From Nanobdellota archaeon (GTDB lineage Archaea; Nanobdellota; Nanobdellia; Woesearchaeales; GCA-2686295), in NCBI GenBank assembly GCA_018812505.1, contig JAHJDK010000149.1, positions 1 to 25,618 on the forward strand: a stretch of 25,618 bases of DNA. Direction: 5' to 3'. The translations under genes were made by a program, and so were the position numbers. Shown here piece by piece: positions 9,033-20,190 of the stretch (positions are counted from its first letter, which is position 1; every line of letters starts with the position of its first letter). Under the pieces are notes generated by a model that saw only the letters and a list, made by a program, of their open reading frames with translations, did not search any database and was not told the DNA's origin.

Positions 9033-10370
9033 TTATTTTGGCAGTAGCTCTACCAATGTTTTGTATTTTTTCCAGGTGTTTTGATTGTTGCACACTGGAT
9101 TTTTGTATCTTAAGAGGTTGCTTCTTTGTGTCTTGACTTGTTCTACTTCTTCTTTCTTGAATTCTGTACTGCTGATTGTTTCTTTTAAGTCTATGACTTC
9201 TCTTAATTTTCCTTGTGTAAATTCATAGTCTTTCTCCCATCTTTGACGTATGGTGTTGTCTAGTGGGTTTCCTTTCAGTAATGCTTGAACTTCGTCCTTA
9301 CTAGTGTATTTGCCAATTTCGTTGTTCACTTCTTTGAGAAATTCTTCTCTTGCATTCGCTAATTTCACTATGTCTCCTGCTGACAATAATTCTTTGTTTG
9401 AGTTTGTCACTTGTTCTATTTGACTGAGGTATCTTCGTTCTATTGTTTGGTATAGTTCTGTTGGTTTTACTTCTGGTGTTGCAGTTGGTCCGCCGTGAAA
9501 TTCTTCCAGAAACATGTCTATTGTTGAGTACCTGTAGTCTTTGATATTCTTGCCTGTTAGGTTGTCAGGAGTTTTTATCTCAAGCATTCTTCTTAGGAAG
9601 TATTTGGAGTCTTTTGTTATGTTTAGCTGTGCTATTTGTGCCATTACAAAATCATAAAATATTGAGTGTTCCTCTCCAGGCCACATATTTCTAAGTGTTT
9701 GATGCGTTCCTTCAATGTTGAATCCTTGGAATGCTTCAACTCCCAAACCAAATATGTCTGTACTTTGAGAGTACTGCATGGTTTTTTTGAAATATTGTTC
9801 TATTAATTCGTAGGAACTGTATTCTATCGCGCTTTGATGACTTCTTGTACTTCTTTTCTGTGATGCATATTCAAAGTCTGAAACAGTCCAGATTATCTTT
9901 CCTCCTTCTTTGTATCCGAGACAGTTTGTGTCTTTTGGGTCTCTGTAAATATATCCTGCCAGATGCAATTCTTTGTTTCCAAGTGCTAATTGTATTATTA
10001 TATCCCACATTTCTTCTTCAAAGTTTTTATTCTGGTCTAAACTTGGAAAGAACTCTTTCAAATTCATATCTGCCCTTTCCATTAAAACTGCTTTATACCC
10101 TGCATATACTAGCGGCTTGGTTCCTATCAATCTCGCGAGGTGTGTTCTATCTTTTACATCTTGTATAATTTTATAAGTTCTTTCACTCTGTTCGCCTGTT
10201 GTGTCCCAGAGAGGAACTTTTAATGCACAGTTTAGGTTGTTCTCTTTCTGCTTCATAAAAATAATCAATGTATCATTTTTTATTCCTTCATCTTTTATAT
10301 CTGTAAATCTTTTATCATCTTCTAAATCATCTAATATTAGTTCTTTTATTTCGCTGTCTGTCATCTTCAT
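9033..10370 (-). CDS. Atypical Hanks-type Ser/Thr protein kinase with C-terminal helical extension
   Basis: ALKVP (subdomain II Lys), VLME, YIYRDPKDTN (catalytic loop), VSDFEYA (DFG-like), YSSYE (APE-like), STDIFGLG (subdomain IX). No clear GxGxxG loop. Confidence 0.85.
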   Translation of the reverse strand: MKMTDSEIKELILDDLEDDKRFTDIKDEGIKNDTLIIFMKQKENNLNCALKVPLWDTTGEQSERTYKIIQDVKDRTHLARLIGTKPLVYAGYKAVLMERADMNLKEFFPSLDQNKNFEEEMWDIIIQLALGNKELHLAGYIYRDPKDTNCLGYKEGGKIIWTVSDFEYASQKRSTRSHQSAIEYSSYELIEQYFKKTMQYSQSTDIFGLGVEAFQGFNIEGTHQTLRNMWPGEEHSIFYDFVMAQIAQLNITKDSKYFLRRMLEIKTPDNLTGKNIKDYRYSTIDMFLEEFHGGPTATPEVKPTELYQTIERRYLSQIEQVTNSNKELLSAGDIVKLANAREEFLKEVNNEIGKYTSKDEVQALLKGNPLDNTIRQRWEKDYEFTQGKLREVIDLKETISSTEFKKEEVEQVKTQRSNLLRYKNPVCNNQNTWKKYKTLVELLPK

Positions 10371-11230
10371 ATCCTCCCATATATCATGAATGTTATGTTA
10401 TCACCTAGCTTATTGGTGATGTCAAGATTAAACTCTTCTGTCAAGCTTAGCGAATCATATGCGTCTCTTATCATAATAGGATTCTCTGCTATCCATCTCA
10501 AATCTTCCTTGATTTGTTCTTCTTTAGTTCTTTTCTCACCCAAAAAGATTCTGCTTATAATATTTTGTTCTATCTGGCTGTCGTATAGTATTCCTAAAAT
10601 CTCTTCTTCTGCAACCATACTTGTAAATCCATCAGTTCCCATTATTAGTATATCTCCATCTTTGAAAGGTTTTTCATATAGCTCAACATTTATGTTTGGT
10701 TCTTTTCCAATGTAGTTTGTCAAATCTGATTCTCCTTTCAACACTTGTTGTTCTGTCTCTAAGAGTTGTGAGATATCTTTTGGCAGGTATACTTCTTCTG
10801 TTGTTAGTTTTTCTATTGTGTCGTCTTGGATGTTTGCAATATATACTGCTCCATCTCCGACGTGTCCACCATATAGTTTGTTGTTATAAATCATGCAGGT
10901 ATCAAGCGTCGTTCCACAATGTGATAATTATCCTACATTCTTTGCTATGCTAGTTATTACTTGGTTTGTTTCTCCTATTGCTCTGCTAATTCTTCTCAGT
11001 ATTTTTTCTTCTTTCACAATACCTCTTTCTAATCCTGATTGCAACATCAACATTTTTTTCATCAGGTAGTAGGTTGTTAGATCACTTGCTTCTGCTCCTG
11101 CTGCGTGTTGTCTTCCACCCATACCATCTGCCATCAAGAATATTTTTTTCTCAAAGTCTGCTCTTAATGAGTCTTGATTTTCTTCTCTCGTACCTATTGT
11201 TGATTCCCATATACAGTTATTTTCAGTCAT
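10367..11230 (-). pseudogene. PP2C/PPM-family protein phosphatase interrupted by one in-frame TAA (10928-10930)
   Basis: The two track ORFs share a frame: ...AKNVG-TAA-LSHCGTTLDTC-MIYNN. PPM motifs lie on both sides: GTREENQD and MADGMGG before the stop; GTT, HVGDG, MGTDG and GDNITF after it. AGGTGGA SD precedes the ATG at 11230. Confidence 0.85.
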
Positions 11231-13463
11231 TTTTCTCCACCTGTGTTCTTGTTTTATCAAAATTATTTATGTCTAATGTTTCCATGCAATAATTGTTTCC
11301 TTCATGGTATATTGCGAGCATGTTTCCTGGTTTGTCTGAGAAAAAGAATAAGTTTTCATCTTGTGTCCATATGCTTGTTTTGTTTTCGAATAATTCATTT
11401 TGCAGTACATATATCTGGCTTGTTCCTTTGAACAAGTCTTGTTTTTTGTAGTAGTTATTGATTATAATTCCTTCTGGTTCTTGGGTTATAACCTGAATTC
11501 CTCCTTCATCTAAGTTTGTGACTGCAATTGTTTTGAACATAGTGGTTATTTCTCTTGCTTGATTATTTTCAAGGTCTTTTACAATCATGTTTCCTTGCAG
11601 TTCGTTGTAAAACATCAGGTTGTTTTGTTCGTTTAGGATTTTTATCCTGCCTATATCTGTTTGTGAAGTTATAATTGGTGTGGAGATTATTCTTTGTCCG
11701 TCAAATACATACATTTCTCTTGGTGTTGCTAAGATTAATCCTTTATGATATGGAATAATCCTTTGCACTTCTAGATTTGTGTTTGTTATTCTTATTAGTC
11801 CTTCTTCTGGTTGGTACACACATATACTCGTTCTGTTATTATCTGTTCTTAAGAAGTATAAGTTTTCATTGTAACTCATGTCTTGTATGAACGGTCCAGC
11901 CTCATTTCTTGTTATTGGTTCTGATATGTGTATTGGTTTATTGTTATGTTTTTCGAACACAAATAATTTGTATTCAAATGTTTTACCTCCATGATTTCTT
12001 TCACTTAGACCAAACACTTCATTATCTCCTATTGCAAATGCACCTAATCTGGTTCTTTTATGTTCATAAGCCATCTCACTCCAGTTTGTAGGTCTGGATT
12101 TCTCGATTGGAAGGTTAAGAATGTATGTTGTTATTATTGGTGTTTTTGACTTATTAAATGAGTATTCTACTATTGTTCTATCGCTTATTTTTGAATGAGT
12201 GTAAATCCTTGAGTTCAGTGAATTTGTCAATAATCTTTCTTTGTTTATTGGAGTTTCCTCTCTGTTTATAATAATTGCATTTGCATTTGATCGTGTAGTA
12301 ATAACTCTTGTTGATGCTTTAAACATGTTCAGCATTAGCTCTGTGTCATCATTTGCAGTTAATTTGTGAAATTCTTTTGGAAGGTTTGTGTTTATAACTG
12401 CTTCTAAGGATTCTGTTGGTCCTACGATTCTATCTTGTATTTGTTGAAAGTCCTGATTTGAAAACAATTCTAGTTTGTCTTCGTTTAACTCTGGAAATCC
12501 TCTCTCAAAGGTTGTTGGCAGTTTGAAAAAATAATGATTATCACCTATTTTGTATGGAATCCCTATTGTTGTTGTGCCTCTGTTTATGACTGCTTTTGTT
12601 AGCTGCTGTATGGCTCTACCTGTTGGTATTGCTGTTGGTACTTCTCTTAGTAATTTTTCAATTGGTGTGTCAGAATATTTTCTTTGTAAGTAATCTATTT
12701 CCCATTCGATTTGTTTAACAGCCCATTTGTTGAGTTCTGAAACAATTTCTCCTTCATGTTCTCTTATTAAATCATATATTCCAAATGTTACATCCTCGTC
12801 CCAGACGGTTGTTCCTATTATTATTTCTGCACTCCTCAAAATTGGCCATGGCCTGTCATGATATCCGGATATTTCAATATTTATTCCTTCGTAAGCGTTG
12901 AATTTCTTGTTGATAAAAGTTTTCAGTATTTGTTTGCACCTTGCTTCTTCTATTGGTACGTGTGCTGTTATCTGTCTGATTGATGGGATGTTCCATCTTT
13001 GTGCTGCGTAGTGTGCGAGTGCTTCTGGCAGGTTTGATACTATGTTTATTATTCCTTTGAATTCCTGATTGAAATATTTTGCAAGTTCATCTATTAATGG
13101 CAGGTTGCTTTCAATCATGTTTGGTCTTTCTTTTTCTGTTGAAAGGTGTTTGCTTGCTGTGAAGAAGAAAAGACTTGTTTCTTTCAGAATTGTTTCTAAA
13201 TCATCCTTGTTGCTGTTTATGATTTCTGTACAATACATAGCTCTGTTTTCAGATGTTATTTCCTGCGCTCTTTTTTTCATACCCTCTCTTTTATCATAAC
13301 TGCCCTCGTTTCCAACAAGATATATTTTATTTATAGGTCTAAATATCTCATGTTCAGTTGTTGCGCATATCGCTGCTAATCCTTTCTCTGCAACTCCTCC
13401 ACATCCATAGAATGTAATATTGAACTCTTCATTATTTGATTTCTGAGCTTTTTTCGTGTTCAA
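11223..13463 (-). CDS. Fusion of an LDH/MDH-like Rossmann domain and a probable C-terminal beta-propeller
   Basis: ITFYGCGGVA (dinucleotide loop), ERPNMIESNLPLI, IVSNLPE, PIEEAR and ISGYHD resemble the LDH/MDH R..N, SNP, DxxR and GEHG motifs. The C-terminal ~350 aa consist of repeated short beta-strands. GGGGAG SD then TTG at 13463; the track start is 13493. Confidence 0.65.
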   Translation of the reverse strand: MNTKKAQKSNNEEFNITFYGCGGVAEKGLAAICATTEHEIFRPINKIYLVGNEGSYDKREGMKKRAQEITSENRAMYCTEIINSNKDDLETILKETSLFFFTASKHLSTEKERPNMIESNLPLIDELAKYFNQEFKGIINIVSNLPEALAHYAAQRWNIPSIRQITAHVPIEEARCKQILKTFINKKFNAYEGINIEISGYHDRPWPILRSAEIIIGTTVWDEDVTFGIYDLIREHEGEIVSELNKWAVKQIEWEIDYLQRKYSDTPIEKLLREVPTAIPTGRAIQQLTKAVINRGTTTIGIPYKIGDNHYFFKLPTTFERGFPELNEDKLELFSNQDFQQIQDRIVGPTESLEAVINTNLPKEFHKLTANDDTELMLNMFKASTRVITTRSNANAIIINREETPINKERLLTNSLNSRIYTHSKISDRTIVEYSFNKSKTPIITTYILNLPIEKSRPTNWSEMAYEHKRTRLGAFAIGDNEVFGLSERNHGGKTFEYKLFVFEKHNNKPIHISEPITRNEAGPFIQDMSYNENLYFLRTDNNRTSICVYQPEEGLIRITNTNLEVQRIIPYHKGLILATPREMYVFDGQRIISTPIITSQTDIGRIKILNEQNNLMFYNELQGNMIVKDLENNQAREITTMFKTIAVTNLDEGGIQVITQEPEGIIINNYYKKQDLFKGTSQIYVLQNELFENKTSIWTQDENLFFFSDKPGNMLAIYHEGNNYCMETLDINNFDKTRTQVEKND

Positions 13464-13577: not shown

Positions 13578-14303
13578 ATGAATGAAGACATACTTACAGA
13601 TTTAGGATTAAGCACTAACGAAGCAAAGATATACACTTCTCTATTATCATTAGGTCTAACAACCATAACCTCTATCGCTCATGAGTCAAAGCTTCACAGA
13701 TCAAACGTTTATGATTCTATAAAAAAACTTGTTGAAAAAGGACTAGTTGCATACATCATAAAAGATAATGTGACATACTATGAAGCTACAGACCCGCAAG
13801 CGCTTCTAAGGATATTAAAAGAAAAAGAAAACAGGTTGAAAGCTGTTTTGCCACAACTGATGCTGTCAAAGAAGCTTGCACAGTCAAAAGGCGAAGCGCA
13901 CATCTACGAGGGAGTGCCTGCATTTACAAGATTGTTGTACGAGTTCTTACAATATAAAGATCCAATACTTGCATACGGAATTCCACCTATTGCTCCTGAA
14001 CTTATGAAAACCAAGATAATGCATTTTCACAAGGAAAGAATGGCACTGAAAATACCAATGAAGCACATATATAACCACAATGCTCAGGAACGCATAGTAT
14101 TTCTTAATAAGATGAAACTCACTTATGCAAGGTACCTTCCAGAATCATTCGATTCACAGGTATCAACAAACATTTGTGGAGAGGAAGTTTTATTGACTTT
14201 GTGGATAAAACCTGTTCTTACGATTCAAATAAAAAATAAGTTAGTCGCTGACTCCTACAAGAAATACTTTGACCTTCTATGGGCTGCTGCAAAAGCAGAT
14301 TAG
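13578..14303 (+). CDS. TrmB-family transcriptional regulator (wHTH plus effector-binding domain)
   Basis: LGLSTNEAKIYTSLL.LG.TT...IA.ESKLHRSNVYDSIKKLVEKGLV, Y.A.DP..L, and a C-terminal IKN..VADSYKKYFDLLW typical of archaeal TrmB-like proteins. Confidence 0.9.
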   Translation: MNEDILTDLGLSTNEAKIYTSLLSLGLTTITSIAHESKLHRSNVYDSIKKLVEKGLVAYIIKDNVTYYEATDPQALLRILKEKENRLKAVLPQLMLSKKLAQSKGEAHIYEGVPAFTRLLYEFLQYKDPILAYGIPPIAPELMKTKIMHFHKERMALKIPMKHIYNHNAQERIVFLNKMKLTYARYLPESFDSQVSTNICGEEVLLTLWIKPVLTIQIKNKLVADSYKKYFDLLWAAAKAD

Positions 14304-14338: not shown

Positions 14339-14500
14339 TTATCCGTTAGTCTTTAACCAGAACCATAAAGAATAAATCACTAATCCTAAACCAACTAAAC
14401 CCCAATGGTATGTGAGCTCAAGCCAACTCCCAACTATTAAAATAAGTCCTAAAATACAGATAACACTCGCAGTTGTCCTACGAGTCCAATTATCGCTCAT
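14339..14500 (-). CDS. 53-aa two-TM membrane microprotein (below the track cut-off)
   Basis: Manual translation: MSDNWTRRTTASVICILGLILIVGSWLELTYHWGLVGLGLVIYSLWFWLKTNG*. TTTAAATA lies about 24-31 nt upstream. Confidence 0.65.
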   Translation of the reverse strand: MSDNWTRRTTASVICILGLILIVGSWLELTYHWGLVGLGLVIYSLWFWLKTNG

Positions 14501-14669
14501 AAATAGCTAAATATTAGTTGAAATATTTAAATTTTTATGAAAAAAAGCAAATAAACAAAAACCTTTACTAATCCCTAACTTAAAAGTTAGGATACTTAAC
14601 GTGAGGTTTTTGGACTTGAAAATGGCATACTGAAATGAGAGGTATTAAAATGTACCATTTTCAAATAAG

Positions 14670-14677
14670 TATATAAA
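14670..14677 (+). promoter_or_regulatory. Archaeal TATA box (TATATAAA) upstream of the sigma-like gene
   Basis: TATATAAA ends 24 nt before the ATG at 14702, the same spacing as at serS and fic. Confidence 0.55.
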
Positions 14678-14701
14678 AAGACAGAGAATACTGTTAAAAA
14701 A

Positions 14702-15277
14702 ATGAGCAGTAACACACAAACAGATATGTTAATGATAGAATTCCAACAAGGAAATGAGTTGGCAGGAATACAAATCTACGAGCAAACATGGAACTATGTG
14801 AATAACTATTTAAAAAACAGTATGCCAGAGTTATCAAACTATGGAATAGATTCACAAGATATCACCCAGCAAGCATTCACGAAGATGTTTCTTAGAAACC
14901 ATCAATTCCAGTCAAGATCATCTGTGAAAACATGGCTGTGCAGCATTGCAAGAAACGAAGCAAAAATTGAACTTAAAAAAAAATCTAATAAAAACTCATC
15001 TCTGGACTTAATACTGGAAACAAATGGAGACTCTATAATGTATGAATTACAAGAAAATAACTATTATGATGATCAAGAAAATATGAATAGAGTTAGGTGT
15101 GCAGTTTCAGACTTAGGCAAAAAAAATCTTAATCAAGCAACAACGTTCATTCTAAGATATATGCAGGGATTAACAATAAAAGTTGTTGCATTAATGACTG
15201 ATTCAAACATATCAACTGTCAAAACCAGAAGTCACAGGGCAATGAACTATGTCCGAAGAATAATAGGACAATACTAA
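14702..15277 (+). CDS. ECF-type sigma-70 family factor-like protein
   Basis: Region 2: DSQDITQQAFTKMF....FQSRSSVKTWLCSIARNEA. Region 4.2 HTH: FILRYMQGLTIKVVA......STVKTRSHRA. At 191 aa it has typical ECF size. Confidence 0.88.
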   Translation: MSSNTQTDMLMIEFQQGNELAGIQIYEQTWNYVNNYLKNSMPELSNYGIDSQDITQQAFTKMFLRNHQFQSRSSVKTWLCSIARNEAKIELKKKSNKNSSLDLILETNGDSIMYELQENNYYDDQENMNRVRCAVSDLGKKNLNQATTFILRYMQGLTIKVVALMTDSNISTVKTRSHRAMNYVRRIIGQY

Positions 15278-16219
15278 TTATTTTTTTGTCTCTAATTCTT
15301 TCTTCTTCTTTTCAAGATCTTCAAGCTTCTTGCCATTAAGCTTTTTTGCAAAGAAAGGTAAAAATATGTTTGCATTAGCAAGCCATAACAACAAACCGAC
15401 AACAATAGCAATTATTGCATATAGCAAGTATTGACTGTAAAAACTTGCAAGTTGATCTGAAAGAACACTTACGATTTTTGTAATCATTTTTTGAGGATCT
15501 ATAGGAATATCCCCTCCAACAATCTTTGAAAGGTCTAACTTTCCAAAAACCCATCCAAGAGCATTTGTCTTGGCAAGAATATATGGAAATATGAATATTG
15601 CAGAGACAAAGAAAACCAGTTTTCTGGCAATGTAATCTGATAGTATCAACAAGTCATTATTAATCAAGTACAATATTAATAACAAAACAAAAATGCCTAT
15701 TAGTAGGTATAAGTTTAAAAAAATACTTTTCTCCTTTAATTCATCAATAGAATTACCAGCATCAGTGATTGTTTCACCAAGGCTTTCAGCAATTTGAACA
15801 GCGGCATCTTCTTCAAAAGAATCCATTTTAACATCCAGAACTGCATCAATCATTGTTTCACGGTCAAGACTTCCATTAGCACATTCTCTTTCAAAAACAA
15901 ACAGTACATCTTCATCATCAGTTTCTATTTGGTCTGAATATTCGCAAAGGTCTCCTTCAGGCAACTCATCAAGATTGTGTTCAACCATAACATCCTGAAT
16001 ATCATCATCCGAGAGCATATCATCAACGTTTTCAATCACAACAGATGCCAATTCAGAAGATAAGTTTTCAGCGTTATCCTCAAAATGCTTTATCGTGCTT
16101 TCAGAAACAGTTAAGGTTAACAATAAAATAAGAACTAAACTTAGACCAAGAATTAAAAATGCGTTTATCAAGCGATTATACCACTGAAGCTTTCGTTTTT
16201 TATAGTCACTAATTTTCAT
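15278..16219 (-). CDS. Hypothetical multi-pass membrane protein with an acidic soluble loop
   Basis: N-terminal TM (AFLILGLSLVLILLLTL), a D/E-rich domain, then about three further hydrophobic segments and a basic C-tail. Confidence 0.75.
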   Translation of the reverse strand: MKISDYKKRKLQWYNRLINAFLILGLSLVLILLLTLTVSESTIKHFEDNAENLSSELASVVIENVDDMLSDDDIQDVMVEHNLDELPEGDLCEYSDQIETDDEDVLFVFERECANGSLDRETMIDAVLDVKMDSFEEDAAVQIAESLGETITDAGNSIDELKEKSIFLNLYLLIGIFVLLLILYLINNDLLILSDYIARKLVFFVSAIFIFPYILAKTNALGWVFGKLDLSKIVGGDIPIDPQKMITKIVSVLSDQLASFYSQYLLYAIIAIVVGLLLWLANANIFLPFFAKKLNGKKLEDLEKKKKELETKK

Positions 16220-19182: not shown

Positions 19183-20190
19183 ATGGCCTATATTCATAAA
19201 AAGAAAATTGGAGAAAAAACATACTACACATTAAGAATTTCTGTTAGAATAGGAGAAAAGGTTATAGCAAAAGATATTGAAGTATTAGGAACAGATATAT
19301 CAAACATAAAAATCGATGACTTAGAAAAGAAACATAGCAAAGAAATAAGAAAATCTTACTATACAATCAAAAAATTCTTAGAAAAAAACAGGTATGAAGA
19401 AGAATTAAAGAATCAAAAATTGAAAAAACAAGAATTACTAACAACAAATCAATTAATAAAAATAGAATCAACAAAGAAGCATTACCAAAATAAATTCTTA
19501 AAACTACACGAACTAACGCAAAAAGACATCCTAGAAATATTCCTAATAAGATTTGCAGTTAATACAACTGCAATAGAAGGAAACACAATAACATTAAAAG
19601 AAGCAATAAAACTATTCAAAGAAGATCAAATACCAAAAAATCATACCACAAGAGAAGTGTATGACTTGACAAATACAAAGAAAGTCTTTTATGAACTATT
19701 GGAAACTAAACAAGAAATAAACAAACAACTAATGATAAACATTCACGACAAACTATTAGACAATATCGACGAAAGAAAAGGATTTAGAAATCACGATATC
19801 CACATATTTGGGCAACCATTCAAACCAACACCAACACAATTTGTTAGAAGGGATTTAGATTTACTGTTAGAATGGTATAAAAAAAACAAAAAGCAATTAC
19901 ATCCATTAGTATTAGCGACACTATTTCATCACAAATTTGAGAGCATACACCCATTTAGCGATGGAAACGGACGAACAGGAAGAATGATGATGAATTTAAT
20001 AATGATGCAAAACGATTATCCACCAATAGTTATTGAAAGAAGAAATAGAAAAGAATATTTAGATGCAATGAGCGAAGCAGATAAAGCAACAAAAAAAGAT
20101 TTGAAATCAAACAAACAAGAATATTTGAAGTTAATAGAATTTACAACAGAACAATTAGTAAAATCTTATTGGGACATATTTTTATTCTAA
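19183..20190 (+). CDS. Fic-domain protein (AMPylase-like) with an internal inhibitory helix
   Basis: Canonical HPFSDGNGRTGR. (S/T)xxxE(G/N) motif TTAIEGN lies N-terminal to the Fic core. TTTATAAA at 19153-19160. Confidence 0.93.
   Translation: MAYIHKKKIGEKTYYTLRISVRIGEKVIAKDIEVLGTDISNIKIDDLEKKHSKEIRKSYYTIKKFLEKNRYEEELKNQKLKKQELLTTNQLIKIESTKKHYQNKFLKLHELTQKDILEIFLIRFAVNTTAIEGNTITLKEAIKLFKEDQIPKNHTTREVYDLTNTKKVFYELLETKQEINKQLMINIHDKLLDNIDERKGFRNHDIHIFGQPFKPTPTQFVRRDLDLLLEWYKKNKKQLHPLVLATLFHHKFESIHPFSDGNGRTGRMMMNLIMMQNDYPPIVIERRNRKEYLDAMSEADKATKKDLKSNKQEYLKLIEFTTEQLVKSYWDIFLF

Follow-up and report, generated by a model that had tools for sequence, protein, structure and literature searches.

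The sigma gene locus and its genome

The window is a complete contig of 25,618 nucleotides, the longest among the 261 contigs of a 1.40-Mb metagenome-assembled genome (MAG, G000; the contig is C49). On its plus strand lies a gene for an ECF-type sigma-70 family protein of 191 amino acids, here called P0001 (14702..15277 including the stop codon; ATG start, TAA stop). The gene is preceded by a TATA box (14670..14677, +) and by two palindromic elements, which separate it from a divergent ORF of 53 amino acids with two hydrophobic, transmembrane-like segments (14339..14500, minus strand). A gene for a TrmB-like regulator (13578-14303, +) precedes the sigma gene by 400 bp; its family is heavily expanded, with 24 matches or paralogs in the 1.4-Mb MAG and up to 19 members in related genomes of the host's family. 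On the downstream side the sigma gene meets a gene for a multi-pass membrane protein of 313 amino acids with no assigned family (15278..16219, minus strand). Further along the window a Fic-domain protein is encoded (19183-20190, +), which matches two defence candidates of PADLOC, PDC-S04 (E = 6.7e-40) and SoFic (E = 2.2e-35). Rfam and tRNA scans across the window gave no matches.

The MAG is estimated to be 84% complete, with 2.6% contamination. It contains two TBP genes and, at a contig end, the N-terminal 288 amino acids of an archaeal Rpo1N. This fragment scores 400 bits against the archaeal model and 54 bits against the model for bacterial β′; it is the sole β′-like match in the MAG, in which no bacterial β′ was found. 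The GC content of the contig equals the genome mean (0.326) and its composition profile is flat along the whole length. The SerRS encoded on it is 75% identical to that of a congener (G005) and 57-61% identical to those of most other congeners, and the TrmB-like gene has orthologs with 45-54% identity in six congeners. The sigma gene is itself typical for the genome in GC content (0.328), and its codon-usage score falls at the 64th percentile of 954 genome ORFs. An independently assembled 918-bp contig from ENA (ERZ928008; ERR2191545, PRJEB10519) is identical to positions 14771-15666 of the window; this stretch runs from the second half of the sigma gene across the abutting stop codons and takes in 390 bp of the convergent gene. 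An earlier sequence-only reading of this DNA had allowed that the contig might be bacterial or chimeric at this point; judged by SerRS, GC content, codon usage and the independent ENA contig it is archaeal, with no visible chimerism, and the sigma gene belongs to the chromosome of a DPANN (Woesearchaeota-type) archaeon, where it is resident. Origin of the gene from a mobile element or provirus was also considered and rejected for want of evidence: neither flanking direct repeats nor an integrase domain were found, and apart from the Fic gene the neighbours do not belong to phage or defence families.

Domain organization and conserved residues of P0001

Profile searches and structure prediction place P0001 in group IV (ECF) of the sigma-70 family, as a member that is intact and highly divergent. 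The Pfam model Sigma70_r2 (PF04542) matches residues 44-95 with 33.9 bits (cut-off 24), and Sigma70_r4_2 (PF08281) matches residues 145-181 with 25.0 bits, marginally below its cut-off of 25.7. The whole-protein NCBIfam model TIGR02937 (sigma70-ECF) covers residues 26-185 with 53.9 bits (cut-off 42.9), and many NCBIfam ECF equivalog models align to P0001 from end to end with scores far under their own cut-offs. The best sequence matches in the PDB are E. coli σE (1or7, 6jbq), AlgU and SigW. An AlphaFold2 model based on 133 aligned relatives reached a mean pLDDT of 88.2, and Foldseek searches with this model retrieved sigma factors exclusively, with ECF sigma factors at the top. Because Pfam, NCBIfam, PDB, AlphaFold and Foldseek agree, P0001 can be said to carry full regions 2 and 4.2, as the sequence-only reading had claimed.

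The predicted structure consists of two domains and a short linker; region 1.1 and the region 3 domain are absent from the modelled 191 residues. The helical σ2 domain with regions 2.1-2.4 (residues 4-98; 14711..14995, +) was delimited by PF04542, the AlphaFold helices, column conservation and Foldseek, and it resembles the σ2 domain of M. tuberculosis SigC (2o7g) with a TM score of 0.83 and an rmsd of 2.3 Å. It is followed by an acidic, Asn-rich linker of 22 residues (residues 99-120; 14996..15061, +) that is predicted to be disordered, since the mean pLDDT is about 50 or less in 10-residue blocks over residues 101-120 and lies below 50 at residues 108-119. The σ4 domain (residues 121-188; 15062..15265, +) harbors the helix-turn-helix (HTH) of region 4.2 with the recognition helix TVKTRSHRA, as defined by PF08281, the alignment with σE and Foldseek; its structural match is region 4 of σE on −35 DNA (2h27; TM score 0.77, rmsd 2.2 Å).

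At an overall identity of 32% or less, P0001 keeps all 13 columns that are conserved to at least 80% among 148 ECF hits. Eight of these residues are in the σ2 domain (D53, Q56, F59, F69, T77, W78, I82 and N85); the others are L138, L151, V173, K174 and A180. At the less stringent level of at least 50% conservation, 35 of 56 columns are kept. Most of the same 13 positions are also retained in the other five archaeal ECF-like proteins discussed below. The recognition helix corresponds to GTVRSRIFRAR in σE, and written as TVKTR.HRA it follows the bacterial ECF consensus GTVKSRL.RAR. In bacteria, the signature residues of regions 2.2 and 2.3, of which P0001 retains D53, Q56, W78 and N85, serve core binding and promoter melting. 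Region 2.2, singled out in the sequence-only reading as the place to look for core-binding residues, reads DSQD..QQ in P0001, where the family consensus is DAED..QE. Purifying selection for a sigma-like fold, or for a sigma-like function, would leave such a conservation pattern, structural and functional constraint being inseparable in an alignment of this kind.

Transcription signals and flanking genes

The TATA box of the sigma gene, TATATAAA, covers positions −32 to −25 relative to the ATG. Among 840 ORFs of at least 150 amino acids from the same genome, TATA-type words show a sharp peak 27-32 nt before the ATG, with 220 TATA starts over −31 to −25 as compared to about 10 per position elsewhere. 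Since TATA words peak at −32 to −27, many genes of this genome can be taken to be leaderless, the middle of their TATA element lying some 27 nt ahead of the start codon. A separate gene set displays a Shine-Dalgarno peak of the GGAGG/GGTGA type at −11; the genome thus has two translation-start classes, one leaderless with TATA at about −30 and one with a Shine-Dalgarno sequence at −11. A promoter position weight matrix (PWM) trained on the native upstream regions, with the consensus A-TTTATAAA-T, finds its best match upstream of the sigma gene at the modal offset of −31, with a score of 6.2 bits that is attained by 30% of the native genes versus 2.3% of random genomic windows. With the centre of the box about 27 nt before position 14700, a leaderless sigma mRNA is implied. 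TTTATA-type boxes at about −31 also precede two other genes, namely the additional sigma gene found in the MAG and the one encoding the closest archaeal homolog (from genome G107), the latter box being TTTATAAA. These data leave little doubt that the sigma gene has a native-type TATA box at leaderless-gene spacing, which upholds what the sequence-only reading had said of its position. A bacterial ECF-type promoter (GAAC-N15-18-CGT) was not found upstream of the sigma gene, and a scan of the region for bacterial sigma-70-type promoters gave matches at or below shuffle expectation.

The sigma gene and the 53-aa ORF have divergent promoters, and two palindromic elements occupy the space between these (14556..14664). 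The first, with an RNA fold z-score of −2.97, is a nested inverted repeat, of which the outer arms (14556-14564/14604-14612) enclose the inner pair (14574-14581/14584-14591). The second consists of two perfectly matching inverted arms of 10 bp, TTGAAAATGG (14616-14625) and CCATTTTCAA (14655-14664), with an N29 spacer, and stops 5 bp short of the TATA box. Both are candidate operators and may have a regulatory role; a genome-wide search revealed no clear over-representation of the palindrome motifs, and so gave no regulon signal. The 53-aa ORF is probably a real leaderless gene because it has its own TTTAAATA at −31 to −24; no family match was obtained for it.

On the downstream side the sequence-only reading had described a convergent gene that abuts the sigma gene exactly, and no co-directional anti-sigma gene. 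Both observations hold: the two genes stand stop codon against stop codon, a co-directional gene downstream of the sigma gene is absent, and no zf-HC2 anti-sigma domain was detected in the 84% complete MAG. Archaeal transcription terminates at oligo-T signals, and a run of seven T (15281..15287, +), located three bases past the sigma stop codon, where the convergent gene has its 3′ end, would be a plausible terminator of this kind. The convergent 313-aa protein has a single full-length homolog in 200 genomes of the order (37% identity; G009, L090:1498-2481). This homolog occurs in a different genus, in an unrelated neighbourhood and without an adjacent sigma gene. Both neighbours were considered as anti-sigma factors and rejected, the 313-aa protein because it has only about 15 cytoplasmic N-terminal residues and its homolog is not linked to a sigma gene, the two-TM product of the 53-aa ORF because it has no cytoplasmic domain.

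Homologs and phylogeny

An exhaustive HMMER search of 1.84 billion representative sequences gave 3646 hits at E ≤ 1e-3, among which the only sequence with more than 50% identity to P0001 was its own fragment. A word-indexed homolog search likewise returned that fragment alone. The best non-self match is a metagenomic protein, P0003, encoded on a 1.3-kb contig (32% identity, E = 1.7e-18). In the order to which the host belongs, P0001-like genes were found in five of 400 sampled genomes, with 32% identity for G107 and 23-27% for G006, G170, G062 and G206. The G170 gene can be read as adjoining an ORF for a putative archaeal recombinase, radA. Within the genus, no ortholog was found in the other eight genomes apart from a 23% identical ECF-like gene located elsewhere in G006, and no relative of P0001 was found at the syntenic position in the congeners. 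The sequence-only reading would have been weakened by a lack of archaeal orthologs; archaeal relatives do exist, at 23-32% identity, but a close ortholog was not found and none is syntenic.

The G107 protein (L040:1489-2094) and P0003 are 30-32% identical to P0001 over the full length and 43% identical to each other. Like the P0001 gene, each of the two genes is followed by a convergent gene, whereas the nearest bacterial matches have a zf-HC2 or other co-directional gene downstream. The genomic neighbourhoods of the three genes differ and their divergence is too great for an orthology call. The contexts of the nearest bacterial matches are heterogeneous, with zf-HC2 anti-sigma proteins, Ser/Thr kinases and others. 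The position of one hit, P0005, among kinases, together with a Hanks kinase/PP2C module in the window (9033-11260), raised the idea that P0001 could be a Ser/Thr-kinase-regulated sigma factor resembling ECF43. This idea was set aside, since congeners have no sigma gene beside that module and kinases occur in only one of six neighbouring-hit contexts.

In a maximum-likelihood tree of 95 ECF sequences, P0001 is on a terminal branch of 1.78 substitutions per site. The six archaeal sequences in this tree do not cluster (six changes, the same as in shuffles), and a clade of P0001, P0003 and the G107 protein was neither recovered nor rejected (p-AU 0.33). Because the 95-sequence tree lacks resolution, no donor, ECF group or transfer age can be assigned.

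Sigma-70 genes in the order and genus

Sigma-70 genes are common in the order. PF04542 (Sigma70_r2) matches were present in 85 of 201 sampled genomes (ca. 42%), closed genomes included, and in 80 of 169 genera; the sample includes four unpublished genomes (G191, G121, G141 and G130), without which the count is 81 of 197. Most of these sigma genes, including the second one of the MAG, give stronger region 2 matches than P0001. A search for a bacterial β′ in five genomes with sigma genes, of which three are 100% complete, found none; these genomes encode the archaeal split Rpo1 only. The clamp coiled-coil of the archaeal enzyme does not vary within the order.

Of the nine genomes of the genus, two carry full sigma genes, the MAG studied here and G006, each of which has one RpoD-like protein (ca. 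280 amino acids) and one ECF-like protein. The second sigma factor of the MAG is an RpoD/RpoS-like protein of 280 amino acids with regions 2-4 (TIGR02393, 175 bits). Its gene is located on the minus strand of contig C206 (L005:1009-1851, the same gene as L075:1462-2304), between genes for an exosome Rrp42-like protein and a class I aminoacyl-tRNA synthetase-like protein. In G006 the same slot also holds an RpoD-like sigma gene, whose product is 36% identical to that of the MAG, as compared to 72% for the Rrp42-like neighbours; in G005, G007 and G002 only an empty spacer of 315-350 nt is found there. From this pattern the sigma genes appear to be long-resident, fast-evolving and often lost in the lineage. 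Fast evolution makes the absence of a close P0001 ortholog less damaging to the idea of a functional resident. Frequent loss, on the other hand, indicates that sigma genes are dispensable, and since its locus is non-syntenic in the congeners, the P0001 gene is dispensable for the lineage as well.

Comparison with known sigma factors

The presence of sigma-70 class genes in DPANN archaea has been known since 2021, when Castelle et al. (Front Microbiol, PMC8204110) described them as family fam00359, "particularly prevalent in Woesearchaeota". Mis-binning was excluded and no anti-sigma factors were found in that study, which left the mechanism open; we found no later paper on the function of these genes. 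P0001 shares with the genes described there a Woesearchaeota-type genome, archaeal flanking genes, the presence of TBP and the lack of an anti-sigma factor. It differs in being of the short ECF (group IV) type and a sequence outlier, with at most 32% identity to anything known, and thus adds an unusually divergent member to the class; this comparison with fam00359 relies on the description in that paper.

Similar to the bacterial ECF sigma factors (E. coli σE/RpoE, 1or7 and 6jbq; P. aeruginosa AlgU; B. subtilis SigW), P0001 has the order σ2-linker-σ4, a comparable length and the conserved residues discussed above. A cognate adjacent anti-sigma factor and an autoregulated promoter of the AAC/CGT type are typical, although not universal, for ECF sigma factors. 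Unlike the bacterial proteins, P0001 is encoded in an archaeal host in which a bacterial core enzyme was not found, its gene lacks a co-transcribed anti-sigma gene, and the autoregulatory GAAC-N15-18-CGT promoter is replaced by an archaeal TATA box. The deviating region 2.2 sets it further apart.

Possible function of P0001

Cellular life recognizes promoters in one of two mutually exclusive ways, by sigma factors or by TBP/TFB, and a sigma gene in an archaeon therefore poses the question of what a sigma factor can do without its polymerase. This question has stood in the literature since 2021, and the P0001 locus supplies a test object rather than an answer: a short, intact, confidently folding ECF-type protein with a clear leaderless promoter and no anti-sigma factor, in a genome with a second, RpoD-like sigma factor that is syntenic yet fast-evolving.

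We propose that a bacterial ECF sigma gene was acquired by the archaeon long enough ago for full amelioration, and that it is one of a pool of fast-evolving sigma-70 genes which genomes of the order gain and lose. The gene would be transcribed by the archaeal TBP/TFB machinery, and P0001 would act in the archaeal cytoplasm, where it would regulate transcription by binding to specific DNA sequences, using the HTH of σ4 and possibly the DNA-binding surface of σ2 as well. Control would be exerted at the level of its own transcription, via the promoter-adjacent palindromes and not by an anti-sigma factor. To this role as a resident DNA-binding regulator we assign a rough probability of 0.5. A target motif for P0001 was not found, and the retention of D53, Q56, W78 and N85 speaks against a plain HTH regulator because such a protein does not need these residues. 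Their conservation would better fit a polymerase-linked or DNA-melting role, or a purely structural constraint.

The main rival of the regulator role is that the gene is a dispensable import, i.e. a weakly useful or neutral bacterial leftover that is transcribed only owing to a TATA-like box provided by AT-rich DNA and that, having no dedicated function, is heading for loss. We consider this possible but rather unlikely. It would account for the lack of close orthologs (with a best non-self match of 32% among 1.84 billion representatives), the restriction of full sigma genes to two of nine genomes in the genus, the long terminal branch and the behaviour of the RpoD-like gene, which is much less conserved than its neighbour and missing from its slot in three congeners. 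However, the frame of 191 codons is intact, the 13 strongly conserved ECF positions are all kept and the AlphaFold model is confident for both domains. The gene is moreover fully ameliorated, and its TATA box is at the modal offset with a score that few random windows (2.3%) reach.

Less probable still is a sigma-like action on the archaeal RNA polymerase, in which σ2 would dock on the clamp coiled-coil of Rpo1N and P0001 would direct or modulate initiation at some of the promoters, either together with TFB or in its place. The Rpo1N clamp coiled-coil is the structural counterpart of the bacterial β′ clamp helices. Such an action would explain why the signature residues of regions 2.2 and 2.3 are kept in P0001 and in the other archaeal ECF-like proteins, and it agrees with the order-wide invariance of the archaeal clamp coiled-coil and with the lack of a bacterial core enzyme in those genomes of the order that have sigma genes, complete ones included. 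Direct support is absent, though, the patchy distribution of the genes argues against a core role, and the conserved residues may serve folding alone. In addition, TBP, TFB and TFE suffice for initiation in all archaea studied (PMC7289017). A complex prediction of P0001 with the 288-aa Rpo1N fragment of the MAG, which includes the clamp coiled-coil, gave an ipSAE of 0.00 (alignments A3 and A2); run without controls, this value counts neither way. If P0001 did bind the archaeal RNA polymerase, a bacterial sigma factor would be working with a Pol II-like archaeal enzyme as an auxiliary or alternative initiation factor, and the view of the evolutionary relation between both initiation systems would change. 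If it is an HTH regulator or a dispensable import, the locus would be one more case of gene flow from bacteria to DPANN archaea.

Of the two functions suggested in the sequence-only reading, a domesticated HTH regulator and a protein aimed at the RNA polymerase of a bacterial partner, neither is singled out by the data, and the second finds no positive support in them. As an effector, P0001 would be passed to a bacterium, either a host or a neighbour, and redirect transcription there, for which its canonical ECF residues would suit it. We regard this as very improbable: the N-terminus is hydrophilic and has no signal-peptide-like segment, the genes seen in the window include none for a secretion system, and neither ECF-type promoter logic nor a link to a bacterial partner was found. 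The known hosts of DPANN archaea are archaea as well (PMC8204110).

Scarcely credible, finally, is an artefact, whether through a bacterial contig, mis-binning or a chimeric join at the sigma gene: the MAG is fragmented and carries some estimated contamination, but lineage-typical genes (SerRS and the TrmB-like regulator) flank the sigma gene on both sides, the composition of the contig is uniform, the promoter architecture is native, the 3′ junction is identical in an independent assembly and closed genomes of the order show the same phenomenon.

Several of the Sigma70_r2 matches in the order are in very long open frames of 450-1763 amino acids from stop to stop, for example L009 (G122:C5:267294-270497). 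These frames hint at fusions of sigma domains with larger proteins or, in GC-rich genomes, at long stretches free of stop codons.
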